This document shows positions 3,188-59,663 of a stretch of DNA of 64,000 bases, piece by piece. Each line of letters opens with the position of its first letter. Positions within the stretch are counted from its first letter, which is position 1. Both the position numbers and the translations under genes were made by a program. The stretch is taken from contig CP084166.1 in NCBI GenBank assembly GCA_021513695.1, forward strand, positions 128,001-192,000. Direction: 5' to 3'. The notes beneath the pieces are model-generated. The model was not told the origin of the DNA and did no database searches. It was given only the letters and a program-made list of their open reading frames with translations. Source of the DNA: Candidatus Heimdallarchaeum aukensis (GTDB lineage: Archaea; Asgardarchaeota; Heimdallarchaeia; Heimdallarchaeales; Heimdallarchaeaceae).

Positions 3188-3298
3188 ACATAAAAATCTT
3201 TATTCTTCAATGTCTTACTAATATTCTTAAATTCTTTTATTAAATAAATAATAAATAATTTGCATATATTTATTAATGTCTGTTTAAAATTCACCTTT

Positions 3299-9333: not shown

Positions 9334-9335
9334 AA

Positions 9336-9359
9336 TTGTTTTTTTTTAGAAATTTTTTT
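9336..9359 (+). terminator. Oligo-T tracts after the ABC ATPase (candidate archaeal terminator)
   Basis: T9 (9339-9347) and T7 (9353-9359) runs lie immediately 3' of the stop at 9333. Archaeal RNA polymerase terminates at oligo-T. Confidence 0.3.
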
Positions 9360-19291: not shown

Positions 19292-20251
19292 TCATTTTTC
19301 TTCTTCATCATCATTTAACAAGCTACTGAAGGCTGCTCTTAATTCATTTTGAAGTGATTCTTTCATTTGCTTTGTAGATTTTTTAGGAGTAGCTGGTGTA
19401 GGCTCTGATACTGGGCTTACTTCATCTGATTCTTCCATTCGTTGAGATCTTCTTTGTTGAGCAGCTTTAACTTCTGAAAGTAAAGCTTGTTGTGGAGAAA
19501 GAGGTCTTGATGCTTGTGCAGCTTGTTCTCTCTCTTTTTTATGAGCATCAGGATCAACTTTCTTTAATTTTGCTTTTGCTTCCAGAATTGCTGAAGCTGT
19601 TGGTCCACCTAATGGTCCCACACCTCCCCCACCCATAGGTCCTGGGCCAGGAGCTGGTGATTGTTGCACTGGAGCTTTTTGTAATTTTGCTTTTGCTTCC
19701 AGAATTGCTGAAGCTGTTGGTCCACCTAATGGTCCCACACCTCCCCCACCCATAGGTCCTGGGCTAGGTGCTGGTGATTGTTGCACTGGAGCTTTTTGTA
19801 AAGATTTGGCAGCATTAGCTATCTCGCTAGCAAATCCTGGAGAACCTGGCCCTGCTCCTAGATTAGGAGCTGGTGCAGGAGCTCCACTTAAATTTGGTGT
19901 TGGAGCTGGTCCCCCTAGATTAGGCGCAGAAGTCGCTCCACCCCCTATATTTGGCGCTGGAGCTGGTCCAGAACTCAATTTAGGTGCAGAAGGTATCGAG
20001 GGACTTGGAGTACTTCCACCTATACTTGGAGCACTAGGCATTCCCATTCCTCCTCCAGGTGCTCCACCTAATTTATTCTCCAAAGCTGTTATTCGCGCAT
20101 CTAATTCGTTAATAGCATCTTCAATTCTTTCTGTAGATTTGATCATAATACTTCCAAAGTTTTCAAGAAGTCTAGTTAATTTTGCAATCGCAGTTTTCGT
20201 AGGGGAAGAACCTTCAGATAATAAATTGTCTAGGTACTCATCAATTGACAT
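19292..20251 (-). CDS. Coiled-coil plus Pro/Gly-rich low-complexity protein with repeated amphipathic LQKAP/LKKV segments
   Basis: N-terminal helix ...RIEDAINELDARITALENKLGG. Then AP.PNLGG-type repeats, followed by FASEIANAAKSLQKAP, SAILEAKAKLQKAP and SAILEAKAKLKKVD, and an acidic tail. The track start at 20254 is TTG; the ATG is at 20251. Confidence 0.7.
   Translation of the reverse strand: MSIDEYLDNLLSEGSSPTKTAIAKLTRLLENFGSIMIKSTERIEDAINELDARITALENKLGGAPGGGMGMPSAPSIGGSTPSPSIPSAPKLSSGPAPAPNIGGGATSAPNLGGPAPTPNLSGAPAPAPNLGAGPGSPGFASEIANAAKSLQKAPVQQSPAPSPGPMGGGGVGPLGGPTASAILEAKAKLQKAPVQQSPAPGPGPMGGGGVGPLGGPTASAILEAKAKLKKVDPDAHKKEREQAAQASRPLSPQQALLSEVKAAQQRRSQRMEESDEVSPVSEPTPATPKKSTKQMKESLQNELRAAFSSLLNDDEEEK
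19566..19799. repeat. Two tandem 117-nt near-identical repeats inside the Pro/Gly-rich gene
   Basis: aattttgcttttgcttccagaattgctgaagctgttggtccacctaatggtccc... starts at 19566 and again at 19683. The copies differ only around ccaggagct versus ctaggtgct. Each encodes a 39-aa unit QKAPVQQSPAP.PGPMGGGGVGPLGGPTASAILEAKAKL. Confidence 0.9.
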
Positions 20252-41208: not shown

Positions 41209-42174
41209 CTATTCTCCCAAATTTTTTCTCCAGTTGTAATCTTCTTTTGCTATCAGTGTAACAGCAGAATCTTCTTTTGAATCGATGATTTTTAATTCTG
41301 TATTTTCTATAATCTTCTTTGAAAATTCTAGTATTTTTGGGTACCTTGGCATTATTTCATAAGGTAACCTTTTTCTTGCGTCTCCAACACTCATAAAACC
41401 TTTTACTTCTAGAAAATGAGCTTCTGATCTTAAAAATAATTCAGCAAAAGCTTCTGGTTCGACTAAATTGTAGTTTTCATCTACTAAAGTTAATCTTATA
41501 ACTTTTCTAGTGTTAAGCGAAGGAAGTAATTCAATTGTTTCCATCACTTTGTTCCATAGATTTGAAAAAGAAGGACGAGCAGTTTTTTTGAAACTTTCTT
41601 CAGTAGGGGCAATTAGAGTAACATAGAGTTGAGTAGGAAGAGGGTCAAGTTTCTTCAACATTTCAGGATTAGTGCCATTAGTTACTAGAAAAGTAGTCAT
41701 ATCACGATTGTGGAACTCTTGAATTAATTCTGGTAACAAAGGATAGAAAGTTGGTTCTCCACTTAAAGAAATTGCAGCATGTTTTGGATTGTAAGCTTCT
41801 TCATATAATCTTGGTTCTACTTTTGGATGATTTTTGAATCCTGCAATTAGTCTTCTTTGATGTTCTATCATTTGATCAATAATATATTCCGGTTTGTCAA
41901 CTTTTCCTCTCATTAATTCTTTGTTGTACCATGATGCACTTCTCCAGCAAAAAACACATTTTAGATTACACCATATTGTTGCAGGAGTACATTGAAGACA
42001 ACGGTGAGAAGCTATTCCGTAAAATTGTTGTTTATAGCAAAAACCTTCTCCTTTTAACGCGTGCTTTAACCAGGTGCAAATTTTTACTGCAGAGTGATTA
42101 CCAGCTATTCTGTACTGTTGTTTTTCTAGTTTGTCTTTCAATTTTGGAGGAATAATGTTTGTATTTAAACTCAT
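41209..42174 (-). CDS. taw1: tRNA 4-demethylwyosine synthase Taw1 (archaeal TYW1, radical SAM), intact copy
   Basis: GNHSAVKICTWLKHALKGEGFCYKQQFYGIASHRCLQCTP followed by the radical SAM cluster CNLKCVFCWR. The protein is 321 aa. Confidence 0.9.
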   Translation of the reverse strand: MSLNTNIIPPKLKDKLEKQQYRIAGNHSAVKICTWLKHALKGEGFCYKQQFYGIASHRCLQCTPATIWCNLKCVFCWRSASWYNKELMRGKVDKPEYIIDQMIEHQRRLIAGFKNHPKVEPRLYEEAYNPKHAAISLSGEPTFYPLLPELIQEFHNRDMTTFLVTNGTNPEMLKKLDPLPTQLYVTLIAPTEESFKKTARPSFSNLWNKVMETIELLPSLNTRKVIRLTLVDENYNLVEPEAFAELFLRSEAHFLEVKGFMSVGDARKRLPYEIMPRYPKILEFSKKIIENTELKIIDSKEDSAVTLIAKEDYNWRKNLGE

Positions 42175-42301
42175 TAGATTTACTTATTTTTCTTTATTTT
42201 TAGACTTTATCTTTATTGAAATTTTTTTTGATTAAATTTACTATAAAATTAACAAAGGAAAACAATAGATTAAAATATTTAAAAAATTAAAATATACTGA
42301 T

Positions 42302-43417
42302 ATGGTTAGTATTAAAAAAGTTCTCAAGCAACTAGAAGATTCTGATCCTATAGTTCGAAGAGATGCAATACTTACTCTTGGAGAACTAAAAGACGAAAAA
42401 GGGGTTGATCCTTTAATTAAGTGTGTTCAACAAGAAATAAAAGAAAATAGAATCACCGCTATTGTTGCACTTTCAGATATTGGAGATCATAGGGCTATTG
42501 AAATATTAATCTACTGTTTAATGGATGATGATGAAGAAATAAGACTTGCTGCTGCTCGAGCTTTAGGACGATTTACTTCTCCTCAAGCTATCACTACTTT
42601 ACTTGTTTCATTAAAAAAAGACCCAAGTGTGAGAGTTAAGAGTCGTGCAGCTCTATCTTTAGGGAGTATTGGTTCAGAACTGCCTGTTGAAGAATTACTT
42701 AAAGAATCTAAATTAGAACACCCAACCACTCTTCTTTATTCTATAAATTCTGCTTTGACAATGATAGCAAAGAAAAATGGTTATAGTTCAGTAGATGAAC
42801 TTGTTCAAAAAATAAGGGCTAAAAAGGCAGAAGTAGATGAGAAAACACCAGAGCATAAACAAATTCAGGAGAAAGAAGAGCTCGAATCTTTTCCTCGTTT
42901 ATATGACTACATTAGAAAATATGTAGCTCGAGAACTAGAAGGGGTACAAACAGTATTAAGTATTAACTCAGATGAAAAGACTGCATCAAAGAAAATAGCT
43001 GATATTTTAGCAGAAAAATTCTGGAAATTTGCTGAATGGATCGGAAAAAGAATGGGACATAAATTAACTGAATATCAATCTGATTTGCTCTGGCAGATGA
43101 TATGGGATACATCAAGGCCAATTAGAAATGAAATTTACCAAATGATAAGAGATCATCGCTCAGAATTAGAGGAATTAAATCGATTCCAGAAATGGCTCAA
43201 CAAAATAGAAGAACAAAAAGAAGAAGAAATCGTTAAAGATATTGAAAGAAGCAGACCTAAACCCATTATTCAAACTTCAAATAATGTGAAAAAAGACGAA
43301 GCAGAGACAATTAGAGCTGCAGATTTGGCAAGAAGTATTTCTTCAAATCTTGAAGAAATAATGGGCAAATATTCTAGTTGGAAAACAAGAGAGTTAAAAG
43401 ATGAAGAAGATTATTAA
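42302..43417 (+). CDS. HEAT-repeat (PBS-lyase type) protein with C-terminal charged coiled-coil region, copy A
   Basis: LEDSDPIVRRDAILTLGELKDEKGVDPLI, IGDHRAIEILIYCLMDDDEEIRLAAARALGRF, KKDPSVRVKSRAALSLGSIG. Confidence 0.7.
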   Translation: MVSIKKVLKQLEDSDPIVRRDAILTLGELKDEKGVDPLIKCVQQEIKENRITAIVALSDIGDHRAIEILIYCLMDDDEEIRLAAARALGRFTSPQAITTLLVSLKKDPSVRVKSRAALSLGSIGSELPVEELLKESKLEHPTTLLYSINSALTMIAKKNGYSSVDELVQKIRAKKAEVDEKTPEHKQIQEKEELESFPRLYDYIRKYVARELEGVQTVLSINSDEKTASKKIADILAEKFWKFAEWIGKRMGHKLTEYQSDLLWQMIWDTSRPIRNEIYQMIRDHRSELEELNRFQKWLNKIEEQKEEEIVKDIERSRPKPIIQTSNNVKKDEAETIRAADLARSISSNLEEIMGKYSSWKTRELKDEEDY

Positions 43418-43542
43418 GCTTCTTTAAAATTCTGAAAATTGCCAAAAAAATTTTTCTAAAACAATTTTTTATTATTTATTAATTTTCGTAATACCTTGCT
43501 AATACTAAATCCTTCACGACAAAAACATATTTATTTCTGTTT

Positions 43543-43565
43543 ACAATTGTGATATAGTAGATATC
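43543..43565. promoter_or_regulatory. Palindromic elements directly upstream of the RHH gene (candidate operator); duplicated at 46891-46913
   Basis: ACAATTGT (43543-43550, a perfect palindrome) is followed by GATAT-AGTAG-ATATC (43551-43565, 5-bp inverted arms). They end 4 nt before the ATG at 43570. RHH regulators typically bind repeats in their own promoters. Confidence 0.3.
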
Positions 43566-43569
43566 TAAG

Positions 43570-43779
43570 ATGGAATATGGGGTTAATATGAAAAAAAAGC
43601 TGATTACATTTAAAGTAACAGAAGCTATGATGAAATGGATAGCAGAAATGATGGAAAAGGGGAATTATAAAAATAGAACAGAATTAATTGTAGATGCTCT
43701 TAGAGAGTTTCTCATCCAAGAAAGAATGGTTGAAGATCAGGAAGAACTAGAAGCAATTTTTGAAAGAATTGATGAATAG
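43570..43779 (+). CDS. Ribbon-helix-helix (CopG/Arc-like) DNA-binding protein, copy A
   Basis: KKLITFKVTEAMMKWIAEMMEKGNYKNRTELIVDALREFLIQE follows the beta-alpha-alpha RHH pattern (compare ...ggysnRSElireAlreyL). The likely true start is the second ATG (MKKKL) at 43588. Confidence 0.7.
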   Translation: MEYGVNMKKKLITFKVTEAMMKWIAEMMEKGNYKNRTELIVDALREFLIQERMVEDQEELEAIFERIDE

Positions 43780-43821
43780 TTCTCTTATAACTCCTTCTGT
43801 ATTTCTGTTATTTTAGCCCTA

Positions 43822-44629
43822 TTATTCAAACCAATACATAGATGTTTTTTCGAAACATTCTTTTGTTAAATTTTGTGAAAGCTTAAAATAATTAGTAACT
43901 TTTTTATCTATCCTTTTTCTGAAAATCACTGCTTGATTAAAATCTCTATCTGATTTTATCCAGTTTTTTGTAATTTCTTTCATTGTTACCCAGATATCAG
44001 AGGAAGGAAAAGGGATTGGTATCTCTCTAAAAAGGTTTGAAGTTATGTCTCTTACAATAAAACTTTCTACTATAAATTGAACAAATGAGGAGGAAAGATA
44101 ACCAAACAACCCATAAAGGTCTATTTGTTCATCAGGAATTATGATGTCAAAAATGTCGTTTACGTAATAGCCTTCTAGGTCCAAACCAATAAAATACTTC
44201 TTTCCTCTATTTCTACGGACTATTTTTGGTTTTTCAAATATTTGATGATCTCCTGGTGCTCCTAATACTTTTCTGTCATAAATTATTTTTTCTTTTCCTG
44301 GAAAAACTTCAAAGTTTATGACACCTTCTTTGTAATTATTTGAAAAGATATTGTGTCTTACTATTTCTACAGATTTAATTTCATTTGAATATTTCTTTTT
44401 TTTAATATACTTCTCTTTGTATCTCTTTGTTATCGTTAATCCTCGTCTAATAAAAGAATGTTCTTTTAATTTAGGGTAATTATTCAGGATAGTGCTGATT
44501 TCCTTTTGACTTTCAGAACTAAAATTTGAAAAAAGAAAAAGAGGAGGGAAAATGAAGCTATAGTCTATTTTGTGTTCATGATTATCTTTTCTTTTATGAA
44601 ATTTAATGTAATTACTTTCGTTTTTTAAA
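43822..44629 (-). pseudogene. 3' fragment (~268 codons) of the N6-adenine DNA methyltransferase gene, truncated at the duplication junction
   Basis: Identical to 47170-47977. It lacks the start codon, the SAM-binding motif and NPPW. Track ORF 43822-44184 (identical to the last 120 residues of the 663-aa protein except Leu544 read as Met from the TTG start) is only its tail. Confidence 0.8.
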
Positions 44630-45524
44630 AATCGATGATTTTTAATTCTGTATTTTCTATAATCTTCTTTGAAAATTCTAGTATTTTTGGGTACCTTGGC
44701 ATTATTTCATAAGGTAACCTTTTTCTTGCGTCTCCAACACTCATAAAACCTTTTACTTCTAGAAAATGAGCTTCTGATCTTAAAAATAATTCAGCAAAAG
44801 CTTCTGGTTCGACTAAATTGTAGTTTTCATCTACTAAAGTTAATCTTATAACTTTTCTAGTGTTAAGCGAAGGAAGTAATTCAATTGTTTCCATCACTTT
44901 GTTCCATAGATTTGAAAAAGAAGGACGAGCAGTTTTTTTGAAACTTTCTTCAGTAGGGGCAATTAGAGTAACATAGAGTTGAGTAGGAAGAGGGTCAAGT
45001 TTCTTCAACATTTCAGGATTAGTGCCATTAGTTACTAGAAAAGTAGTCATATCACGATTGTGGAACTCTTGAATTAATTCTGGTAACAAAGGATAGAAAG
45101 TTGGTTCTCCACTTAAAGAAATTGCAGCATGTTTTGGATTGTAAGCTTCTTCATATAATCTTGGTTCTACTTTTGGATGATTTTTGAATCCTGCAATTAG
45201 TCTTCTTTGATGTTCTATCATTTGATCAATAATATATTCCGGTTTGTCAACTTTTCCTCTCATTAATTCTTTGTTGTACCATGATGCACTTCTCCAGCAA
45301 AAAACACATTTTAGATTACACCATATTGTTGCAGGAGTACATTGAAGACAACGGTGAGAAGCTATTCCGTAAAATTGTTGTTTATAGCAAAAACCTTCTC
45401 CTTTTAACGCGTGCTTTAACCAGGTGCAAATTTTTACTGCAGAGTGATTACCAGCTATTCTGTACTGTTGTTTTTCTAGTTTGTCTTTCAATTTTGGAGG
45501 AATAATGTTTGTATTTAAACTCAT
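44625..45524 (-). CDS. taw1: Taw1 duplicate, C-terminally truncated at the duplication junction (last 23 residues replaced by Phe-stop)
   Basis: The first 298 residues are identical to 41209-42174. The frame then crosses the junction at 44629|44630 and terminates. It is unknown whether the product is functional. Confidence 0.6.
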   Translation of the reverse strand: MSLNTNIIPPKLKDKLEKQQYRIAGNHSAVKICTWLKHALKGEGFCYKQQFYGIASHRCLQCTPATIWCNLKCVFCWRSASWYNKELMRGKVDKPEYIIDQMIEHQRRLIAGFKNHPKVEPRLYEEAYNPKHAAISLSGEPTFYPLLPELIQEFHNRDMTTFLVTNGTNPEMLKKLDPLPTQLYVTLIAPTEESFKKTARPSFSNLWNKVMETIELLPSLNTRKVIRLTLVDENYNLVEPEAFAELFLRSEAHFLEVKGFMSVGDARKRLPYEIMPRYPKILEFSKKIIENTELKIIDF

Positions 45525-45649
45525 TAGATTTACTTATTTTCTTTATTTTTAGACTTTATCTTTATTGAAATTTTTTTGATTAAATTTACTATAAAATTAA
45601 CAAAGGAAAACAATAGATTAAAATATTTAAAAAATTAAAATATACTGAT

Positions 45650-46765
45650 ATGGTTAGTATTAAAAAAGTTCTCAAGCAACTAGAAGATTCTGATCCTATA
45701 GTTCGAAGAGATGCAATACTTACTCTTGGAGAACTAAAAGACGAAAAAGGGGTTGATCCTTTAATTAAGTGTGTTCAACAAGAAATAAAAGAAAATAGAA
45801 TCACCGCTATTGTTGCACTTTCAGATATTGGAGATCATAGGGCTATTGAAATATTAATCTACTGTTTAATGGATGATGATGAAGAAATAAGACTTGCTGC
45901 TGCTCGAGCTTTAGGACGATTTACTTCTCCTCAAGCTATCACTACTTTACTTGTTTCATTAAAAAAAGACCCAAGTGTGAGAGTTAAGAGTCGTGCAGCT
46001 CTATCTTTAGGGAGTATTGGTTCAGAACTGCCTGTTGAAGAATTACTTAAAGAATCTAAATTAGAACACCCAACCACTCTTCTTTATTCTATAAATTCTG
46101 CTTTGACAATGATAGCAAAGAAAAATGGTTATAGTTCAGTAGATGAACTTGTTCAAAAAATAAGGGCTAAAAAGGCAGAAGTAGATGAGAAAACACCAGA
46201 GCATAAACAAATTCAGGAGAAAGAAGAGCTCGAATCTTTTCCTCGTTTATATGACTACATTAGAAAATATGTAGCTCGAGAACTAGAAGGGGTACAAACA
46301 GTATTAAGTATTAACTCAGATGAAAAGACTGCATCAAAGAAAATAGCTGATATTTTAGCAGAAAAATTCTGGAAATTTGCTGAATGGATCGGAAAAAGAA
46401 TGGGACATAAATTAACTGAATATCAATCTGATTTGCTCTGGCAGATGATATGGGATACATCAAGGCCAATTAGAAATGAAATTTACCAAATGATAAGAGA
46501 TCATCGCTCAGAATTAGAGGAATTAAATCGATTCCAGAAATGGCTCAACAAAATAGAAGAACAAAAAGAAGAAGAAATCGTTAAAGATATTGAAAGAAGC
46601 AGACCTAAACCCATTATTCAAACTTCAAATAATGTGAAAAAAGACGAAGCAGAGACAATTAGAGCTGCAGATTTGGCAAGAAGTATTTCTTCAAATCTTG
46701 AAGAAATAATGGGCAAATATTCTAGTTGGAAAACAAGAGAGTTAAAAGATGAAGAAGATTATTAA
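45650..46765 (+). CDS. HEAT-repeat protein, copy B (identical translation to 42302-43417)
   Basis: The 371-aa translation is identical to copy A. Confidence 0.7.
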   Translation: MVSIKKVLKQLEDSDPIVRRDAILTLGELKDEKGVDPLIKCVQQEIKENRITAIVALSDIGDHRAIEILIYCLMDDDEEIRLAAARALGRFTSPQAITTLLVSLKKDPSVRVKSRAALSLGSIGSELPVEELLKESKLEHPTTLLYSINSALTMIAKKNGYSSVDELVQKIRAKKAEVDEKTPEHKQIQEKEELESFPRLYDYIRKYVARELEGVQTVLSINSDEKTASKKIADILAEKFWKFAEWIGKRMGHKLTEYQSDLLWQMIWDTSRPIRNEIYQMIRDHRSELEELNRFQKWLNKIEEQKEEEIVKDIERSRPKPIIQTSNNVKKDEAETIRAADLARSISSNLEEIMGKYSSWKTRELKDEEDY

Positions 46766-46917
46766 GCTTCTTTAAAATTCTGAAAATTGCCAAAAAAATT
46801 TTTCTAAAACAATTTTTTATTATTTATTAATTTTCGTAATACCTTGCTAATACTAAATCCTTCACGACAAAAACATATTTATTTCTGTTTACAATTGTGA
46901 TATAGTAGATATCTAAG

Positions 46918-47127
46918 ATGGAATATGGGGTTAATATGAAAAAAAAGCTGATTACATTTAAAGTAACAGAAGCTATGATGAAATGGATAGCAGAAATGAT
47001 GGAAAAGGGGAATTATAAAAATAGAACAGAATTAATTGTAGATGCTCTTAGAGAGTTTCTCATCCAAGAAAGAATGGTTGAAGATCAGGAAGAACTAGAA
47101 GCAATTTTTGAAAGAATTGATGAATAG
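46918..47127 (+). CDS. Ribbon-helix-helix DNA-binding protein, copy B
   Basis: The 69-aa translation is identical to copy A. Confidence 0.7.
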   Translation: MEYGVNMKKKLITFKVTEAMMKWIAEMMEKGNYKNRTELIVDALREFLIQERMVEDQEELEAIFERIDE

Positions 47128-47169
47128 TTCTCTTATAACTCCTTCTGTATTTCTGTTATTTTAGCCCTA

Positions 47170-49161
47170 TTATTCAAACCAATACATAGATGTTTTTTCG
47201 AAACATTCTTTTGTTAAATTTTGTGAAAGCTTAAAATAATTAGTAACTTTTTTATCTATCCTTTTTCTGAAAATCACTGCTTGATTAAAATCTCTATCTG
47301 ATTTTATCCAGTTTTTTGTAATTTCTTTCATTGTTACCCAGATATCAGAGGAAGGAAAAGGGATTGGTATCTCTCTAAAAAGGTTTGAAGTTATGTCTCT
47401 TACAATAAAACTTTCTACTATAAATTGAACAAATGAGGAGGAAAGATAACCAAACAACCCATAAAGGTCTATTTGTTCATCAGGAATTATGATGTCAAAA
47501 ATGTCGTTTACGTAATAGCCTTCTAGGTCCAAACCAATAAAATACTTCTTTCCTCTATTTCTACGGACTATTTTTGGTTTTTCAAATATTTGATGATCTC
47601 CTGGTGCTCCTAATACTTTTCTGTCATAAATTATTTTTTCTTTTCCTGGAAAAACTTCAAAGTTTATGACACCTTCTTTGTAATTATTTGAAAAGATATT
47701 GTGTCTTACTATTTCTACAGATTTAATTTCATTTGAATATTTCTTTTTTTTAATATACTTCTCTTTGTATCTCTTTGTTATCGTTAATCCTCGTCTAATA
47801 AAAGAATGTTCTTTTAATTTAGGGTAATTATTCAGGATAGTGCTGATTTCCTTTTGACTTTCAGAACTAAAATTTGAAAAAAGAAAAAGAGGAGGGAAAA
47901 TGAAGCTATAGTCTATTTTGTGTTCATGATTATCTTTTCTTTTATGAAATTTAATGTAATTACTTTCGTTTTTTAAATCCATTGATAACAAAAAGAATTC
48001 ATTGGAAACGTCTTTAAAGGAATAATCTAAATCTGTGTAAATTTCTACATCATATCTATTATCTTTGAGGTGTTTTCTCCATTTCTTGCCATAAGTATCA
48101 GTTATGATACCTGAAGGTAATATTAATCCTACTTTCTCTTTGGATAAACTTTCTGCAATGATCAAAAAAGGTAGAGCAAAATTATATTTTCCAAAGATTC
48201 TATTTTTATAAGGTTCTCTCTTTAAGAATTCTTTATATCTATTATTTATTTTTTTATATTCTATCCACGGTGGATTTCCAATAACAAAATCAAAAAATTT
48301 TTTCTGAAGACTTAAACTTTCATCAAAAAATATTTCAGGCAAATCAACAAAAAAGCTAAATTTGGATAGAGAAGGATATTTCTTCGATATTTCATCTCTT
48401 TTTGTTAAACATTCTTTTATATCTTGAAAAGAAATTTCTTTTTTACCAAATATCACTTCTCTTCTTTTTTCACGAAGTATCGCTAAAAGTTTCAAAAAAG
48501 TTGTATTTTTTCTTTCTGACATTTGCTTTATTATTCTTTCATCATAACCAAGAATGCTATCTCCGTATTTTGAGATTAAAGGAAGTAATTTTCTTTTTCT
48601 ATTATCTTGTAACATGAAAAAGAGTTTGAAAACTTGAAATTCATAAATAAATGGATCAACTTCAACTGAATATGGCATAATCTCTTGTTTTTCAAAAGCT
48701 GGGTAGAGAAAATCTCCTATTCCTGAAGAAATATCGATAACTGTTTTAGTTTTTTTAGAATTGTTACTCAAAATATCTAATAAATCATATACCTTTTTAA
48801 CAAGAATCCTATTAGTAAAATATTGACCTGTTAATCTCGTTTTATCTTGAATAAGTGATAAAATATTAACTTCATTTATTGTCTTGATTATATTTTTGAT
48901 TTGTTCAAAAACCCAAACTGGTAACTTTTTTTCTAGAACTCTGAGTTTTTCTAACGATAGAAGTATTTGCTTATCATCTTGATTTAGATTAACCAGATTT
49001 ATTAACGAAGTTTTTTGTTGATTTTGTTCAGATGAAAAGGATGAAGAATTGTAAATAAAGTAAAACTTTACTATCATCGATTTTAATTCATTAACTGAAA
49101 CTTTGTACCTACTAGCCTTTTTCTGAATTCTACTATGTAGATTTTCCTCTTTTATTTCCAT
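47170..49161 (-). CDS. N6-adenine DNA methyltransferase (gamma-class, Eco57I/TaqI-like) with C-terminal target-recognition region
   Basis: Motif order X-I-IV: GQYFTNRILVKKVYDLL, VIDISSGIGDFLY (SAM-binding), FDFVIGNPPWIEYKK (NPPW catalytic). I could not see a PD-(D/E)xK nuclease motif. Confidence 0.85.
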   Translation of the reverse strand: MEIKEENLHSRIQKKASRYKVSVNELKSMIVKFYFIYNSSSFSSEQNQQKTSLINLVNLNQDDKQILLSLEKLRVLEKKLPVWVFEQIKNIIKTINEVNILSLIQDKTRLTGQYFTNRILVKKVYDLLDILSNNSKKTKTVIDISSGIGDFLYPAFEKQEIMPYSVEVDPFIYEFQVFKLFFMLQDNRKRKLLPLISKYGDSILGYDERIIKQMSERKNTTFLKLLAILREKRREVIFGKKEISFQDIKECLTKRDEISKKYPSLSKFSFFVDLPEIFFDESLSLQKKFFDFVIGNPPWIEYKKINNRYKEFLKREPYKNRIFGKYNFALPFLIIAESLSKEKVGLILPSGIITDTYGKKWRKHLKDNRYDVEIYTDLDYSFKDVSNEFFLLSMDLKNESNYIKFHKRKDNHEHKIDYSFIFPPLFLFSNFSSESQKEISTILNNYPKLKEHSFIRRGLTITKRYKEKYIKKKKYSNEIKSVEIVRHNIFSNNYKEGVINFEVFPGKEKIIYDRKVLGAPGDHQIFEKPKIVRRNRGKKYFIGLDLEGYYVNDIFDIIIPDEQIDLYGLFGYLSSSFVQFIVESFIVRDITSNLFREIPIPFPSSDIWVTMKEITKNWIKSDRDFNQAVIFRKRIDKKVTNYFKLSQNLTKECFEKTSMYWFE

Positions 49162-53613: not shown

Positions 53614-54720
53614 ATGAGTAAATTATTTACTCCCTTTAAAATAGGAAAAATTGAACTAAAAAATAGATTGATAAGATCAGCAACTACCTCATATTGGTCA
53701 ACGAATGATGGATTACTTACAGAACCTATCTTTGATTATTACGAGAAACTTGCTAAAGGGGGAGTAGGTCTTATTATAAAAGGTCATTCGTATATAAATG
53801 ATAAAGCAAGAGCACATCAAAGACAATCAGGATTATGCAACAAAGAACATGTAAAAAAAATGAAAGAATTAACGGAAATTGTTCATAAATATGAAACTCC
53901 TATTATTGCTCAATTAAACCATGGGGGATATTATTGTAGAGATGACAGAATTAGTGCTTCCAAGTACCGTTCTAAAAAATGGCAATCTAGACAAGCATCT
54001 ATTGAAGAAATAAAAAAAATAATTAATGATTTTGCTAATTCAGCTGAACTTGCTATAGAAGCAGGGTTTGATGGAGTACAGATTCATGCAGCACATGGTT
54101 ATCTTATAAGTCAATTTTTATCTGATATTGTTAATAAGAGAAAAGATGAATATGGAGGGTCTTTAGAAAATAGAGCTCGTCTGCTTTTAGATGTTTATTC
54201 TGCAATCAGAGACAGAATCGGAAAAAGAGAAGTAGTAGGAGTAAAAATCAACTGTGATGATTTCGCTAATGAAGGTGGATTTACAATAGAGCAATCTATA
54301 CAAGTAATGAAATGGTTATCAAAAAATTCCATTGACTTTATTGAAATATCTGGAGGAGGTCCTGAACAAAATAGAGAAATTAGAAAAAAGAGAGCTAGAT
54401 ACATAGATTCAAGTAATGGAAAGTCTCCTTTAGAACAACCAACATTTGGTGGATATGCAATTAAAATAAAAAAAGAGATTAAAAACACTCCTCTCTCTTT
54501 AGTTGATGGAATACGAACAAAAGAAACAATGGATGCTTTGCTCGATAATAATATTGTTGACTTGGTTTCGATGAGTAAGCCATTTATTATTGAACCTGAT
54601 TTTCCAGCAAAAATGAAAAACGGACAAAGTCGTTCAGCTTGTATTGACTGTTTAAGATGCTTACAGCCTAACAATTTTGGTAAAAAAATGTTAAGATGTT
54701 TCTATCTAAACGAGATCTAA
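53614..54720 (+). CDS. NADH:flavin oxidoreductase (Old Yellow Enzyme family)
   Basis: LFTPFKIGKIELKNRLIRSATT..., GFDGVQIHAAHGYLISQFLS..NKRKDEYGGSLENRARLLLDV. Confidence 0.9.
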   Translation: MSKLFTPFKIGKIELKNRLIRSATTSYWSTNDGLLTEPIFDYYEKLAKGGVGLIIKGHSYINDKARAHQRQSGLCNKEHVKKMKELTEIVHKYETPIIAQLNHGGYYCRDDRISASKYRSKKWQSRQASIEEIKKIINDFANSAELAIEAGFDGVQIHAAHGYLISQFLSDIVNKRKDEYGGSLENRARLLLDVYSAIRDRIGKREVVGVKINCDDFANEGGFTIEQSIQVMKWLSKNSIDFIEISGGGPEQNREIRKKRARYIDSSNGKSPLEQPTFGGYAIKIKKEIKNTPLSLVDGIRTKETMDALLDNNIVDLVSMSKPFIIEPDFPAKMKNGQSRSACIDCLRCLQPNNFGKKMLRCFYLNEI

Positions 54721-54797
54721 AAAGAAAATTTTCTTTTTTATCTCTAATCACTAAACTAAAAGATTTAATATTTATTTTTATGTTATTGTTCTGAACA

Positions 54798-55625
54798 ATG
54801 ACATCTAATTTTGAGTATTTTAAAATATTAAAGCCTGTCTTAGTCACTGGAGGAATGATATTAAACCTCATGAGAGGAAAAGTAACTAATCAACCAAAAG
54901 AAAGTGATCTCCCTCCAGAATTGGTTAAAGAAAGCTCTACTGCTCACACAGAAATTGACGACTTTGTACAAGATATAGCCCTCGAAATTCTCCATTCTTC
55001 TTTACCAGATATTGGAATAAATGCAGAAGAAGTTACAGATAGAGTAAAATGGTTTAAACAAGACAAAACAGGACTCTGTTTTCATCTAGATCCCTTAGAT
55101 GGGACGCTGGCATATACAAAAAATAGAGAAGATTTTGCTATTGGTGCAGCTTTATCTGACAAATTAAAATTTATAGCCAGTGGGATATACTTTCCTGCAG
55201 TTGATAGACTTTTTTACGCAGAAAAAGGAAAAGGTGTTCTAGTTATTAATAGTTTAGGAGAAAAGATTTCATTCACTAGACCTTCCTCACCAGAAAAAAA
55301 ATATGCGCAAAAAAGATGTGATGAGTATGTTCCCATTCTAGAAAAATTAGCTTTTACAAAGCTAGATTCAATGAGTGCTCATCATAGTATGATTTCTATC
55401 CTAGAAGGAAAAGCTGCAATTCAGATGTATCATATGGCAAGCCCTCATGATTTTGGAATTCCTCAACTAATTCTTGAAGAAGCAGGAGGAATATGTACTG
55501 ATCTTGAAGGGAAACCAATAAAATATGACCCAGACTTTAATAGAGTGCCCTACTTCCTCGCTTTCTTTGATACTAAAATCAAGGACTTATTTTTCAAAGA
55601 AATAGAGAGAAGTAAAACATTGTAG
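54798..55625 (+). CDS. Inositol monophosphatase / CysQ superfamily phosphatase
   Basis: Metal-binding motif FHLDPLDGTLAY (the DPxDGT motif), and the C-terminal motif region SPHDFGIPQLILEEAGG (corresponding to WD.AAG..I..EAGG). Confidence 0.7.
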   Translation: MTSNFEYFKILKPVLVTGGMILNLMRGKVTNQPKESDLPPELVKESSTAHTEIDDFVQDIALEILHSSLPDIGINAEEVTDRVKWFKQDKTGLCFHLDPLDGTLAYTKNREDFAIGAALSDKLKFIASGIYFPAVDRLFYAEKGKGVLVINSLGEKISFTRPSSPEKKYAQKRCDEYVPILEKLAFTKLDSMSAHHSMISILEGKAAIQMYHMASPHDFGIPQLILEEAGGICTDLEGKPIKYDPDFNRVPYFLAFFDTKIKDLFFKEIERSKTL

Positions 55626-55652
55626 ATGACTTATTTTTTTACGTAAGTTTGT
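55626..55652. repeat. Left inverted repeat / junction of the TnpB element (contains TTACGTAA at 55639-55646)
   Basis: See the mobile_element entry. The 16-nt core ttttttacgtaagttt is a perfect reverse complement of 57466-57481. Confidence 0.75.
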
Positions 55653-55809
55653 AAAAATTGAGGGAGAATTGAATGTAAAAAAAGAAAAAGGAAAGGAGGA
55701 AGGGAGTGGAAAGGAAAATGATGGCTTTTTATAGGGAAAAAAAGTATAAGTAAGTAAGAAGAGAAGAAGAAAACCAAAGAAAGAGAAAATAGAAGGAGAA
55801 AAGAAAGAG

Positions 55810-57255
55810 ATGGAGGCCGTCGTCAAAACCTTGAAAGTGAGAATAAAGAATGAGGTATTGACGACAAGGAAGAAGGAAAGGTTAAGGAGAATAACAGGAA
55901 GAGATACGAGAATAATAGAAAAGTATGTGAGAATAATACACCAAAATAGAAAAAAAATATGTATAAGAACTAAAAAAGGGAAAATAAGAGTACATAGAGG
56001 AAAATTAGACGATTTAACATTAACTACTTCAAGAGTAAAAGAAGAAGAGAGGAGAAAGACTTTTCCTCACGACCTTAAGAAAATGTTCCCCTATTGTTCT
56101 CACAATGAGTTTCAAGAGTGTAGAGATATAGCTGTACAACTATATAAACAATGGTATAGACCTAACACCACTCGTCCTCCAATAAAGAGAGCGAGAAGAC
56201 AACTAATTAATGGAAAGAGGTTCATCCTCATCCATCTACCAAAAGAAAAGAATAACACTCTCACTCGTTGGTGGGTAGGAATAAGAGACTCGTTAGACAC
56301 TTGGAAAAGAAATACCCCCTATCATCAGAAGTTGTGGTTACCTTTAGAGATGAGCGATTTCCACCAGAAAGAGTTAAAAAAAGGACAGATAAAAGGTCTA
56401 GAACTGCGATACAAACGTTCTACAAGTGAGTGGTGGGTATATTTTCAACTAAAAGTTCTTCCTCCTTCTTCTTTTCTAAGCGATAATTCCTCTTCTTCTC
56501 TTCCTCCAGCTGTGCTGGGAATAGATCTGGGGATAAACATTCCTGCTGCAGGAGTGTTACTAACCCCTAAAAAGAAGTTAACTATTAAACAGATAAAATT
56601 CTAGTATACCAAACAGTGGAATATAATCAATCATAGATATAAACTCAAACTTTCCCGTCTTCAGAGGAAAGCGGCTTTAAACGACCAGTCGGGTAAAAAA
56701 CACCAAGTTTATCGTTTTCTTGGTCTTCTTCGTCGGAGATATAGAAACGTTAAACTGGCGTATATCCACCAATTTGTAAACGATGTTGTGCGGACAATAG
56801 AGACTTATGCACAAGTGTATGACCTTTTCGTCGTCGTAGGTTATCCTAAACATATCCGTGAAGAGAAAGGAAAAGGGAAAGTTTCTCGTCAATTTCGCAG
56901 AAAACTTCATCAGTGGAACTATGCTCTTGTTCTTGGTCTTCTCCGTCGGGCATTAATATTAAGAGGTTTCGAATCTCACCGTATTCTCACTTTAGACGAA
57001 AGAGGAACATCCTCTCACTGTTCTCGTTGTGGAACGAAAGTCTCTCGCCCTGTCAGAGGGTTAATCTCTTGTTCTTCTTGTAATTACACTTTCCACTCTG
57101 ACCTCACAGGAGCAATGAATATCGCTCGAAGGTTCCTTGGTCATCTTTTCCGTCCTCGTGCAACAACTATTACTGACCACCTTACTGGCTATAAATTCAG
57201 TCTCACCCATTTCACTGTTTGCCAAGGGCTCAGCCATTGGTTGCAGTCCCAGTAG
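55810..57255 (+). pseudogene. tnpB: TnpB-like (IS605 OrfB / RNA-guided nuclease family) gene interrupted by one in-frame TAG
   Basis: Track ORFs 55810-56604 and 56788-57255 are in the same frame. Codons 56605-56787 are also open and read YTKQWNIINHRYKLKLSRLQRKAALNDQSGKKHQVYRFLGLLRRRYRNVKLAYIHQFVND... RuvC-I is GIDLGINIPAAG. The zinc finger is CSRCGTKVSRPVRGLISCSSCNY. RuvC-III is FHSDLTGAMNIARRF. The single stop is TAG at 56602-56604. Confidence 0.8.
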
Positions 57256-57463
57256 ACAAAAAAAGAAACTAATTACTCTTATCTTTGAGGATAGTTATCT
57301 TTTTTTGTCTCTCGTGGAGCGAAGAAAAAGTTCCTTTCTTCTTTATGATTCCCACGATTCGTGTATGATGTCTGTCTCAACCCCTTCTTTCATTGTATGC
57401 TCTGGTTGAGTTCGCAAGAGATCAAACTCTCTTCTAGTTTTTTCTCTTGAAAGACTGAGTGCG

Positions 57464-57490
57464 AAAAACTTACGTAAAAAAGTAAATCAT
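57464..57490. repeat. Right inverted repeat / junction of the TnpB element (contains TTACGTAA at 57470-57477)
   Basis: Reverse complement of 55626-55652 at 24 of 27 positions. Confidence 0.75.
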
Positions 57491-57527
57491 GAAAAAGAGT
57501 TAAAATCTTCTTTGTTTTTTTTTTGAT

Positions 57528-58550
57528 ATGAAATGGATTTATAAATTTCTAATTAGATTTCTTATTTTTACTCTTCTTTTCGGAATATTTATTGCGATTT
57601 CTGTAAAATTTGCATATGTTGAGCCATCAGAATACATATATTCAGATAATGATTGGGATAATTTCTCTTATACTCCAGAATATAATCATTCTCAGTGGAA
57701 TGTTTTGCTTGATGCTCATTCTCACACTTATTATTCGGATGGTTATCTTTCTCCTAGACAGAATATCCTTTGGCATATCGCTATGGGCTTTAATGCTATG
57801 GTTCTTACTGATCATAATACGTTTGATGGTGTTGAAGAGATATTAAAATTAGCAAGAGAAGAGTTTAATGACTCCATTAAAGTTTTTAGAGGTATGGAAT
57901 GGACTACTGATAGAAGTCATCTAAATATTATTCTTCCTCCTGATGTTACTCCTGAAGATTATGAAAAACTGAAAACACATAAGAGTTATTCTTACACTCC
58001 TACAGATGAAGAATTTAAGAGTATAATTGAAGAAACACATTCTATTGGAGGGTTGGTGATTGTTAACCATATTCCTTGGTCAGAAGAGTTTTGTCACGAT
58101 CAGCCAACAAGAGAGCAATTTCTTGAGTGGGGTGTAGATTATATAGAAATAATTAATGAAGAAACTTATGACAAAGTTTCTGAAGATTTTTGCATAGAAA
58201 ATAATCTGGGAATAATTACAGGAACAGATATGCACAAACCAGAACCAGTTTATGCATGGACAACACTAAATGTTTCTGAATTTTCAGAGGAAACAATCTT
58301 TAATGAACTAAAAGCAAAAAGAACAGGATACATTTTTACTGGAGCAGCTTCTCCTTATCCTATTGAACACAGACATAACCCTGCTTATTCTATTTTTTAT
58401 CCTTTTATCAAAATGGGCGAAGTATTCAGAGATGTTTATTCAAGTCCATATTTTGCAGAATACTTGACTCCCATATTTCTCTATCCTTACTTAATCTTCT
58501 TTTCTGTAGAACTAACCAAATTTGTGATTTATAAAAAGAGAAAGAAATAA
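57528..58550 (+). CDS. Membrane-anchored PHP-domain metal-dependent phosphoesterase
   Basis: An N-terminal TM helix is followed by LLDAHSHTYYSDGYLSP...MVLTDHNTFDG...VIVNHIPW...TGTDMH, the PHP His/Asp motif series. There is a C-terminal TM helix. Confidence 0.75.
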   Translation: MKWIYKFLIRFLIFTLLFGIFIAISVKFAYVEPSEYIYSDNDWDNFSYTPEYNHSQWNVLLDAHSHTYYSDGYLSPRQNILWHIAMGFNAMVLTDHNTFDGVEEILKLAREEFNDSIKVFRGMEWTTDRSHLNIILPPDVTPEDYEKLKTHKSYSYTPTDEEFKSIIEETHSIGGLVIVNHIPWSEEFCHDQPTREQFLEWGVDYIEIINEETYDKVSEDFCIENNLGIITGTDMHKPEPVYAWTTLNVSEFSEETIFNELKAKRTGYIFTGAASPYPIEHRHNPAYSIFYPFIKMGEVFRDVYSSPYFAEYLTPIFLYPYLIFFSVELTKFVIYKKRKK

Positions 58551-58583
58551 TTCTCTTTTTTCTTTTTTACAACTTAATAGCTG

Positions 58584-59663
58584 TTAGATTGGTCTGTTAT
58601 ATTTCCATCTTTCGATTGTTTCTTTCCAGTTTTCATAGATTTCTTTTTCAACTTCTGGTTCAATTTTGTAATTATCTGGTTTATATTCACGGAGAGTATC
58701 TAAATATGATTGAATATCGGGTTTAACCTTATTAAAATCTCCTAATTGGAGCTGAGAGTAGATTTTTTCTAGATTTTCTATAGGATTTTGACAAAATTCT
58801 TCATATTTAATTTCAATAATGTTTTCTTTGGGAATGGATTCAAGGTCATTGTAGAATTTCTTATACATCTCTTTATACATCTCGAAAATAAACTCTTTAA
58901 TTTCAAAATTAGGTTTTTGCAAATAGAATAGCTTTGTGTTTGTATTGTATAATTTTACTGTTGAAAAGAATACTTTGTAAGGGTCTCTATAAATGTGAAT
59001 GAATTTTGCGTTAGGATACAAATCAAGAATAAGTTTTACTCTAAACGTATCCAAAGGATTTTTGAGCAATAGTTGTTTTCCCTTTCCTCTAATTGTGAGT
59101 TTGTTAATTAAGTATCTGAAAGATTCTTTCCACTTTCTTAATTCTTTTTCAGTTGCATCATCAAAGGAGCAATATTTCAAATATTTTTCTTTATTTCTAG
59201 GGAAGAAAAGAGCTGTAAGGGGAGAAAGTAAGCAATAATTAGTTAACGCAAACTCGTGCTCTTGAGGAGTTTTTGCATTCATTTTCATATTATCCATTGG
59301 ACGTTTCTTTGGAATAAGAGGTGACATTATTGTTTTTGTAAACCAATAACTTGTAAGAAATTGATGAGGGAAGGTTGCTTCAACCATGTTAAGATAATAA
59401 TATCTCTTATCATGTAACATTAGTTCTTGTAGGTAAGTTGTTCCTCCTCTCCAATGTCCAATAATAAATATAGGGTCTTTCTCTAACTTAAGTTTCTTTA
59501 TTCTTTTATTCCATATTAATTGTTCAAATATTACAAAAGGAGAAAAAAGAATTGTTACCAATGTTATTGCAAATACCTTTGGCCAATATTTGATGTGAAT
59601 CCTGAATTTGTTTTCCCATAGTAGTTTTATCCATTTAATAAAACTTGCACCCATAAGAAACAT
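58584..59663 (-). CDS. Sulfotransferase family protein
   Basis: 5'-PSB-like loop PIFIIGHWRGGTTYLQELM and 3'-PB-like FIHIYRDPYKVFFS. There is an N-terminal TM/anchor helix. Confidence 0.8.
   Translation of the reverse strand: MFLMGASFIKWIKLLWENKFRIHIKYWPKVFAITLVTILFSPFVIFEQLIWNKRIKKLKLEKDPIFIIGHWRGGTTYLQELMLHDKRYYYLNMVEATFPHQFLTSYWFTKTIMSPLIPKKRPMDNMKMNAKTPQEHEFALTNYCLLSPLTALFFPRNKEKYLKYCSFDDATEKELRKWKESFRYLINKLTIRGKGKQLLLKNPLDTFRVKLILDLYPNAKFIHIYRDPYKVFFSTVKLYNTNTKLFYLQKPNFEIKEFIFEMYKEMYKKFYNDLESIPKENIIEIKYEEFCQNPIENLEKIYSQLQLGDFNKVKPDIQSYLDTLREYKPDNYKIEPEVEKEIYENWKETIERWKYNRPI

Follow-up and report, generated by a model that had tools for sequence, protein, structure and literature searches.

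A Probable Omega-RNA Scaffold Reaching the Last Base of a Solo tnpB Element in Heimdallarchaeia

Introduction

What lies between the stop codon of a tnpB gene and the end of the mobile element that carries it, and where does that element end? The question is raised by a locus within a 64,000-nt stretch of DNA (henceforth the window; GC content 30%) from the Asgard archaeon Candidatus Heimdallarchaeum aukensis. There a tnpB-like open reading frame (ORF), whose N-terminal fragment is 100% identical to K9W45_00690 of that organism, is followed by non-coding DNA in which an earlier note, made from the sequence alone, saw a candidate guide RNA scaffold, i.e., an omega-RNA (right-end element RNA, reRNA). 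I will argue, from sequence comparisons and by analogy with characterized systems, that 57212–57490 on the + strand is probably the omega-RNA scaffold of a solo-tnpB transposable element of Heimdallarchaeia. The element itself spans 55626–57490.

About 25 related elements were available for comparison, along with one orthologous site from which the element is absent (locus L029). The alignment of right ends consists of the window copy and eight further distinct copies, and the close set used to assess covariation comprises nine sequences from roughly three sub-lineages. More distant elements are grouped by protein identity (51%, 41–45%, and 37–38%). The tnpB family is present in many copies, the cluster at 90% identity having 18 members for Ca. 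H. aukensis and 31 for Ca. H. endolithica, and it is confined to metagenome-assembled genomes (MAGs) of Heimdall- and Thorarchaeota type. A scan of genome contigs for the element found four copies, all from Ca. H. endolithica, and blastn found no match to it in phage records. Within the window, neither blastn, tblastn, nor a search with the inverted-repeat pattern turned up further copies or miniature derivatives.

The Ends of the Element

The limits of the element are defined by the following features:

55626–55650, + strand: left terminal inverted repeat, ATGACTTATTTTTTTACGTAAGTTT, 25 nt, pairing with 57466–57490
57466–57490, + strand: right terminal inverted repeat, 25 nt, conserved in the copies
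55626–55627 and 57489–57490: left and right copies of a duplicated AT

The terminal inverted repeats, of sequence ATGATTTACTTTTTTACGTAAG, are 92% complementary over their 25 nt, and the only occurrence of the pattern in the window is at the element ends. Matching left ends were found in 17 other copies. The right ends are conserved up to ...AAAAAGTAAATCAT (...AAATCAT, finishing at 57490 in the window) and unrelated afterwards: mean pairwise identity is 0.90 for 57450–57490, as compared to 0.37 for 57491–57520. The boundary between predicted scaffold and guide is sharp and coincides with the end of the element, with variable sequence beyond.

The orthologous empty site in L029, another MAG of the Heimdallarchaeaceae, has the inositol-phosphatase and PHP genes adjacent to each other and contains nothing of 55628–57488. 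It reads ...ACATCGTTG-AT-TAAAAAGAGTTAAAATC (with ...GTTG before the AT), and the occupied site in the window reads ...ACATTGTAG-AT-[GACTTA...AAATC]-AT-GAAAAAGAGTTAAAATC (with ...GTAG before the first AT). Comparison of these junctions therefore puts AT there once when the site is empty and twice when it is occupied. The pair could be a 2-bp target duplication or, alternatively, the shared crossover dinucleotide of a serine recombinase. A 4-bp duplication of CATG was considered and rejected, the two copies disagreeing in most elements, and a duplication of TA was rejected as well.

These results move the right junction, which the earlier note had placed near 57473, by 17 bases to 57490, as the copies are conserved through the interval (57474–57490 is identical in all close copies) and the empty site lacks it. 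The sequence TTACGTAA is found at 55639–55646 and 57470–57477, lying 13 nt within the inverted repeat at either end. L001 and L002 have other sequences in its place, TTGCG(T)AA in the left repeat and TTCGCAA in the right. Elements of the groups with 37–45% identity have other inverted repeats. Their right ends finish with ...AACTCAT, and those of their left ends that were located start with ATGA or ATGG (ATAC in L025).

No transposase gene adjoins the element at those family loci whose called genes were listed. A Y1 tnpA is absent from the gene lists of the 12 family loci with called genes (whole genomes were not scanned), and no Cas1 gene was seen in any examined locus.

Some observations concern the insertion site and sequences that resemble the ends. 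At 55617–55627 (compared with 2455–2480 of L029), the inositol-monophosphatase gene ends with a TAG that directly abuts the insertion. The orthologous ORF at the empty site is five codons longer (280 aa vs. 275 aa in the window), so that the host gene has a different 3' end where the element is inserted. At 9310–9340 there is a sequence, ATGAATCTATTACGTAAAATTG, that loosely resembles the repeat core (ATGA...TTACGTAA), from which it is more than three mismatches distant. Finally, TTACGTAA is over-represented in the window (5 occurrences vs. 0.6 expected), with two of the occurrences falling within a 3.35-kb duplication described below.

Constraint at the 3' End of tnpB

The segment proposed to be the scaffold is as follows:

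57212–57490, + strand: predicted omega-RNA (reRNA) scaffold, about 279 nt, from conservation and covariance model R1

The ORF terminates with TAG at 57253–57255, and the sequence after it is, as the earlier note had it, a non-coding stretch relatively rich in G and C (37% vs. 30% in the window). Constraint, however, does not respect the stop codon. Amongst eight distinct close copies, identity at third codon positions is 0.70 for 57096–57211, which serves as a proxy for weakly constrained sites, and 0.94 for 57212–57252, and the non-coding blocks are 0.90–0.94 identical, with 57298–57327 and 57335–57375 at 0.93–0.94. Because identity from 57212 onwards is well above the 0.70 proxy, the constrained module is better described as approximately 57212–57490, which takes in the last 44 nt of the ORF, than as 57100–57490, the extent first proposed for it. 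A coding reading of the module is excluded, because its apical regions and loops carry indels of many lengths that are not multiples of three. The core of the original idea, a structured RNA scaffold that begins within the 3' part of tnpB and continues as far as the element's right end, thus finds support in the non-coding conservation and in the sharp boundary at the end.

The corresponding region of L021, from a closely related strain that has the same insertion, can be compared with the window over 54310–58755. The element differs at 8 of 1865 nt, none of them in the last 455 nt, and the flanks differ at 47 of 2581 nt, the element being less diverged than its surroundings.

Predicted Secondary Structure

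The single sequence folds better than its shuffles (z = −3.7). RNAalifold, run on the nine sequences, predicted three of the helices listed below independently (H0, H3, and H4), and I added H1 and H2.

57226–57249, + strand: hairpin H0, GGGCUCAGCC AUU GGUUGCAGUCC, within the end of the ORF (RNAalifold)
57255–57309, + strand: hairpin H1, GACAAAAAAAGA ... UCUUUUUUUGUC, with an apex variable in length and sequence
57312–57317 with 57352–57357, + strand: outer stem of helix H2, UCGUGG/CCACGA
57321–57327 with 57335–57341, + strand: inner hairpin of helix H2, GAAGAAA/UUUCUUC
57376–57410, + strand: helix H3, CUCAACC/GGUUGAG (RNAalifold)
57415–57449, + strand: helix H4, CAAGAGA/UCUCUUG, enclosing a small inner stem (RNAalifold)

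Over H0 to H4, 92.8% of the cells of the alignment are paired, as compared to 49–56% when the 3' partners are slid by 1–3 columns. There are nine pairs changed on both sides, vs. 1–6 in the slid controls, a number reached by 1 of 500 column shuffles. Compensatory changes are seen in the inner hairpin of H2 (GAAGGAA/UUCCUUC in L023 and GAAGAG/CUCUUC in L010), in H3 (CUUAAUCC/GGAUUAAG in L001 and UUCAAC/GUUGAA in L022), and in H4 (CAAGAAA/UUUCUUG in three copies). G-U pairs occupy 27 cells when the + strand is read and would occupy 11 on the − strand, which modestly favors an RNA on the strand of tnpB. Covariance model R1, which represents the 5' module in the close group, finds every close copy with E values from 1e-37 to 5e-44 and L010 with an E value of 1e-17.

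Structure conserved across homologues, to be expected if the earlier note was right about a scaffold, was looked for beyond the close group as well, and compensatory helices were found in relatives whose proteins are 37–100% identical. H0 occurs in every group, its loop on the codons for S-(H/Q)-W-L, and its stems differ yet are complementary: GGGCUCAGCC/GGUUGCAGUCC, GUGUUCAGCC/GGCUUAACAC, and CUUAAGCC/GGCUUAAG (as CUUAAGCC AGU GGCUUAAG in L027). Every group also has a hairpin between H0 and H2, one that differs from H1 outside the close group. Both H0 and the outer helix of H2 recur in the same register, with other base pairs, in the 51%, 41–45%, and 37–38% groups. The outer helix of H2 closes just 3' of the module's most conserved motif (described below). 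Its first two pairs are invariant G-C, and at the third pair the close and 51% groups have U-A, the 41–45% groups C-G, and the 37–38% groups A-U.

Two complementary segments had been singled out at the outset as possible stems. One of them, TCGTGG with CCACGA, turns out to be the outer stem of H2, conserved and covarying down to 37% protein identity, although its coordinates had been given one base off. The other, GAGTT with AACTC, does exist (at 57408–57412 and 57425–57429, again displaced by one base), but the stem is not conserved: all five pairs form in the window copy only, three or four in four close copies, two in three copies, and none in L010, owing to gaps. Its 5' arm, moreover, overlaps the 3' arm of the better supported, covarying H3. 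RNAalifold also proposed a long-range pairing of GUGGAGU with the inverted repeat (columns 131–137 and 316–322 of alignment A4), which I rejected because it has no counterpart in the 41–45% group, whereas the local helix H2 does.

A metagenomic copy, L009, is interrupted by unrelated sequence at about 2700–2720, right after CTCGTGGAGTG and inside helix H2. Either a nested insertion or a break in the assembly may account for the interruption.

Proposed Pairing between an Invariant Motif and the Terminus

The motif in question is the following:

57343–57353, + strand: most conserved motif of the module, UUAUGAUUCCC, invariant, holding AUGAUU at 57345–57350

Across groups the motif takes the form (U/A)(U/A)AUGA(U/G)U(C)CC. 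AUGAUU is the exact complement of AAUCAU, the last six bases of the element (57485–57490), including the duplicated AU. This complementarity is present in all 15 of the complete right ends, and in all elements of the 41–45% and 37–38% groups both arms switch jointly to AUGAGU/ACUCAU. A right end contains the hexamer a single time, except that L027 has one extra copy. Within groups the right tip does not vary, while the left tip, its mirror in the DNA, is degenerate at positions 4–8, which speaks for a constraint on the right tip in addition to recognition by a transposase. The pattern suggests a pseudoknot that incorporates the duplicated AT, pairing about −146 to −141 with −6 to −1 relative to the predicted start of the guide.

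A search with protein P0017 for other members of the L010 group found none, and the last sequence looked up, P0190 (L032), is of the AUGAGU type. A previous candidate for the pseudoknot, GUGUAUGAUG/CAUUGUAUGC, was discarded, as a change of U to C in three copies breaks the pairing and nothing compensates for it.

Flanking Sequences, Guide, and Target-Adjacent Motif

If the scaffold extends to the end of the element, then the guide should be found in the sequence just beyond it:

57491–57510, + strand: predicted guide, GAAAAAGAGTTAAAATCTTC, lying in the host DNA upstream of the PHP-domain gene

The earlier note had the guide begin at the TTAC(GTAA) junction near 57473, but 57474–57490 is invariant element sequence and cannot serve as guide, and the predicted start is for this reason 57491. 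The same sequence, GAAAAAGAGTTAAAATCTTC, follows the single AT of the empty site, except for its first base (T instead of G). That 57491–57510 acts as a guide, and one of this length, is inferred by analogy with known systems.

The flanks of the family show preferences at the junctions. The base ahead of the left AT is C in 17 of 18 left junctions, and the second base ahead of it is never T. Following the right AT, G is found 7 times, A 6, T 3, and C not at all (n = 16). The target-adjacent motif (TAM) would then, as predicted from these junctions and from the practice of related systems, combine the left flank with the dinucleotide at the junction (...V-C-A-T) and be something like C-A-T. The TTAC-like motif first suggested is not compatible with these flanks, none of which has TTAC on the left side.

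The tnpB Gene and Its Product

Two features complete the description of the element:

55810–57255, + strand: tnpB pseudogene, 481 codons, with an in-frame TAG and a TnpB-like translation
55725–55735, + strand: TATA-like box, CTTTTTATAGG, conserved, about 75 nt upstream of the ATG of tnpB

The window copy of tnpB is truncated by a nonsense mutation, TGG to TAG, at 56602–56604 (codon 265), a position occupied by an invariant Trp in 15 full-length homologues. TAG is a normal stop codon in this genome, terminating both the upstream inositol-monophosphatase gene and tnpB itself. The orthologous copy in L021, 98.8% identical to the window over 4.4 kb, has TGG there and encodes an intact protein, P0001, and the window copy is for this reason regarded as a recent pseudogene.

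The Pfam match of the protein is limited to the Cas12f1-like TNB domain (PF07282, E = 2.9e-9), and its match to the NCBIfam model guided_TnpB (E = 1.9e-23, 83 bits) is below the cut-off of 100, which explains why it is publicly named "zinc ribbon domain-containing protein". Solved TnpB and Cas12f chains in PDB are matched by a family profile with E values down to 2.7e-13. An AlphaFold model of moderate quality (pLDDT, the predicted local distance difference test, of 71), given to Foldseek, retrieved Cas12, TnpB, Fanzor, or related RNA-guided nuclease complexes as all of the best 50 structures listed, the best E value being about 2e-4. By profile and by model, then, the protein has the TnpB/Cas12 fold, including a RuvC domain and a zinc finger.

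The predicted active-site residues are D239 of RuvC-I (in D-L-G), an alternative glutamate E397, and D431 of RuvC-III, all three invariant in 15 homologues, and the cysteines of the zinc finger are C404/C407/C421/C424. At the position of the canonical glutamate of RuvC-II there is Gly (VVVGYP), and the invariant glutamate stands instead six residues ahead of the first CxxC of the zinc finger (E397-RGTSSH-C404, or ExxxxxxCxxC). Most full-length homologues have the signature D-(L/I/M)-G ... ExxxxxxCxxC ... CxxC ... D. This alternative glutamate is what Yoon et al. 2023 (PMC10711439) describe as "Ealt", and it corresponds to the RuvC-II-rearranged type of Altae-Tran et al. 2023 (PMC10691335).

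Most close copies and the 44% group share the TATA-like box CTTTTTATAGG, which is missing from the left ends of L002 and L011. Judged by its sequence and position, the box probably acts as an archaeal promoter for both tnpB and the precursor of the omega-RNA. A promoter and terminator scan used bacterial models and was uninformative for an archaeon.

Weighing the Explanations

If 57212–57490 is indeed an omega-RNA scaffold, then events might proceed as follows. The RNA would be transcribed together with tnpB from the TATA-like box in the left end, through the gene and into the flank, and the precursor would be trimmed to its 3' part. This part would fold into hairpins H0 to H4, and AUGAUU of UUAUGAUUCCC would pair with the terminal AAUCAU (the duplicated AU included) to form a pseudoknot, and the host sequence that follows, some 20 nt beginning at 57491, would be the guide. 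A TnpB encoded by an intact copy, with the alternative-glutamate RuvC site (D239/E397/D431), would bind the RNA and cut DNA matching the guide next to a motif ending in C-A-T. The target cut in this way may be an emptied donor or target site, which would favor retention or homing of the element. The RNA from the window could act only with TnpB supplied in trans by other copies in the genome, because its own tnpB is broken by the change of TGG to TAG.

Several considerations weigh against this account. The RNA, its ends, and its processing are predictions from sequence, and the tnpB copy at hand is a pseudogene. The folding energy is equally good on the minus strand, and the bias in G-U pairs is modest. 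Covariation comes from few and related sequences, nine close ones of roughly three sub-lineages. Model R1 found no match in the 37–45% groups, so that homology of helices across groups rests on anchored manual comparison, and Rfam gave nothing relevant, either at the gathering threshold on the whole window or at a relaxed threshold on 55500–57700. The proposed pseudoknot has only two sequence states. A possible third, in L010 (AUGCGU, with a predicted terminus of ACGCAU), is on a contig that stops about 6 nt short. Lastly, the window's own left flank has G, not C, ahead of the AT.

Could the locus be explained in another way? In the form proposed by the earlier note, the element would be of IS200/IS605 type, with a right end at about 57473, a guide starting at the TTAC/GTAA junction, and TTAC as TAM. 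TTAC is the target of IS608, and TTACGTAA is indeed present at both ends of the element. It lies, however, 13 nt inside the repeats and is altered in L001 and L002, and this explanation must also contend with the 17 bases that are identical in close copies and gone from the empty site, with left flanks devoid of TTAC, and with the lack of a Y1 tnpA beside the loci whose called genes were listed. I find it scarcely credible, refuted as it is by the right-end alignment, the empty site, and the left flanks. A different possibility is that the right end is conserved solely as DNA, providing subterminal sites for a transposase that would recognize the inverted repeats, the internal ATGATT being an extra repeat tip and no guide RNA being made. 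True terminal inverted repeats and a 2-bp duplication are what one sees in cut-and-paste elements, the hexamer is the same as the consensus of the left tip (ATGATT), concerted change of binding sites could mimic covariation, and z-scores of minimum free energy are alike on the two strands. Yet the left end has no matching subterminal module, and its tip is degenerate while the right tip and internal hexamer are invariant. Compensatory substitutions in H0, H2, H3, and H4 and the toleration of apical indels are the behavior of an RNA, constraint extends into synonymous sites of the ORF, and some 280 nt is far above the footprint typical of a transposase. Conservation as DNA only is thus unlikely.

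One may also accept the RNA and deny that it is a guide, seeing in it a structured 3' untranslated region (UTR) or cis-regulatory RNA that controls the stability or translation of the tnpB mRNA. The RNA would be structured and conserved, on the coding strand, and directly after the stop codon, all as such a role would have it, and guide function rests on analogy. In every characterized TnpB, IscB, and Fanzor system, however, the structured RNA in that place is the guide scaffold (PMC10691335, PMC10711439, PMC10530073), and here the structure reaches the last base of the element and pairs with it, for which a UTR element has no need. I consider a purely regulatory RNA quite unlikely. The omega-RNA scaffold remains the probable explanation.

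Other Repeats in the Window

Other repeats occur elsewhere in the window. At 41209–47600 there is a perfect tandem duplication of 3.35 kb (unit offset 3348–3350 nt). Each of its units has genes for a radical-SAM/wyosine-formation protein and a HEAT-repeat protein, together with the 5' portion of a methylase gene of Eco57I/TaqI-like type, and only in the second unit is the methylase gene complete (47170–49161). At 12479–12742 and 19558–19791 there are 33-nt tandem repeats (about 8 units, encoding in frame a motif like TYTEPKSPSED) and a 117-nt unit repeated twice, which are probably instances of the intragenic tandem repeats reported for Heimdallarchaeum genomes (PMC8813620).

Relation to Known Systems and Significance

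The element shares with IS200/IS605 elements (the ISDra2 paradigm) a protein of TnpB/Cas12f fold and a structured RNA on the tnpB strand that would extend over the last codons to the right end and then into the flank. Elements of that class, however, have asymmetric hairpin ends 3' of a TTAC-like tetranucleotide, in place of the 25-nt inverted repeats and duplicated AT found here, and the family of the window has a longer predicted scaffold (about 280 nt) and its putative catalytic glutamate in the alternative position. On the evidence of its sequence, the element is not IS200/IS605-like.

Parallels are also offered by the TnpB of IS607 (ISXfa1) and by Fanzor, which have the alternative RuvC-II glutamate six residues ahead of the zinc finger (PMC10711439), a dinucleotide common to both junctions, and a TAM that would equal the left flank plus that dinucleotide. 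They also resemble the present family in the proposed pseudoknot, between a site about 140 nt upstream and the last bases of the scaffold, including duplicated or flanking nucleotides. In ISXfa1 a U-130/A-3 pseudoknot has been shown experimentally (PMC10711439), and the geometry proposed here is similar. Right-flank nucleotides of IS607 and target-site duplications in eukaryotes are built into the reRNA scaffold and pseudoknot (PMC10711439). There are differences as well. The fingerprint of Fanzor and pro-Fanzor combines DPG in RuvC-I with Ealt (PMC10711439), whereas nearly all homologues here have D-L/I/M-G. IS607, in which a serine TnpA crosses over at a dinucleotide that both ends and the target have in common, lacks terminal inverted repeats and uses GG. 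The AT at both junctions would fit such a crossover, but the clear inverted repeats of the present family do not, and no serine recombinase was found beside the elements examined, whose host is an Asgard archaeon.

A third set of parallels is found among the DDE-associated and solo TnpBs with inverted terminal repeats (PMC10691335). Like them, the element holds a solo tnpB flanked by symmetric ends, and fewer than 250 bp separate the 3' end of the gene from that of the transposon. Glycine in place of the canonical RuvC-II glutamate (VVVGYP) is seen in the RIIr clades, and Asgard TnpBs form, as here, an Asgard-restricted, multi-copy family (both PMC10691335). In contrast to TnpBs linked to DDE or aCas1, no copy examined here has a DDE or aCas1 gene beside it. 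The aCas1-associated Asgard TnpBs have a hypervariable stretch downstream, followed by GTTCACTCA (PMC10691335), and unlike that type (Cas1H-Asgard), the window's right end lacks GTTCACTCA. Relatives of the Thor group at about 31–34% identity, L030 and L031, have GTTCACTCA downstream of tnpB (3255–3290), with a variable stretch ahead of it, as in the aCas1-associated type, and in L030 a further, inverted copy precedes the gene.

Solo TnpBs with symmetric ends, TnpBs with a rearranged RuvC-II, and TnpB groups specific to Asgard archaea have all been described (PMC10691335), and omega-RNA function of TnpB is a known class. What is new is the anatomy for a lineage of Heimdallarchaeia: inverted-repeat ends with a 2-bp duplication of AT, no visible transposase, a predicted scaffold of about 280 nt running through the right repeat, and a candidate pseudoknot using the duplicated dinucleotide. 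A broader proposition is that Heimdallarchaeia have a multi-copy lineage of Ealt TnpBs on cut-and-paste-like elements (terminal inverted repeats and a 2-bp AT duplication), with an omega-RNA that runs through the repeat and takes the duplicated AT into a terminal pseudoknot, an arrangement so far known from eukaryotic Fanzor transposons and, in part, from IS607. As a whole I hold it to be doubtful. If true, it would mean that in Asgard archaea, too, RNA-guided nucleases are coupled in "Fanzor-style" fashion to transposons of double-strand DNA, the elements being mobilized by some transposase or possibly without a dedicated one, and Heimdallarchaeia are among the archaea closest to eukaryotes.

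There are practical consequences as well. TnpB omega-RNAs are the ancestors of the guide RNAs of Cas12 and are mined as miniature genome editors, and the predicted scaffold, guide start, and candidate TAM are what reconstitution of an uncharacterized archaeal lineage of Ealt TnpBs would require. To follow the IS605 paradigm by analogy (TTAC, with the end at the first repeat) would set the guide wrong by 17 nt. The type of element is unusual for prokaryotic TnpBs and leads one to ask what mobilizes the 18–31 copies per Heimdallarchaeum genome. A pseudoknot formed with the duplicated AT would be a second, independent case, after IS607/Fanzor, of a scaffold "absorbing" the nucleotides of its junction.

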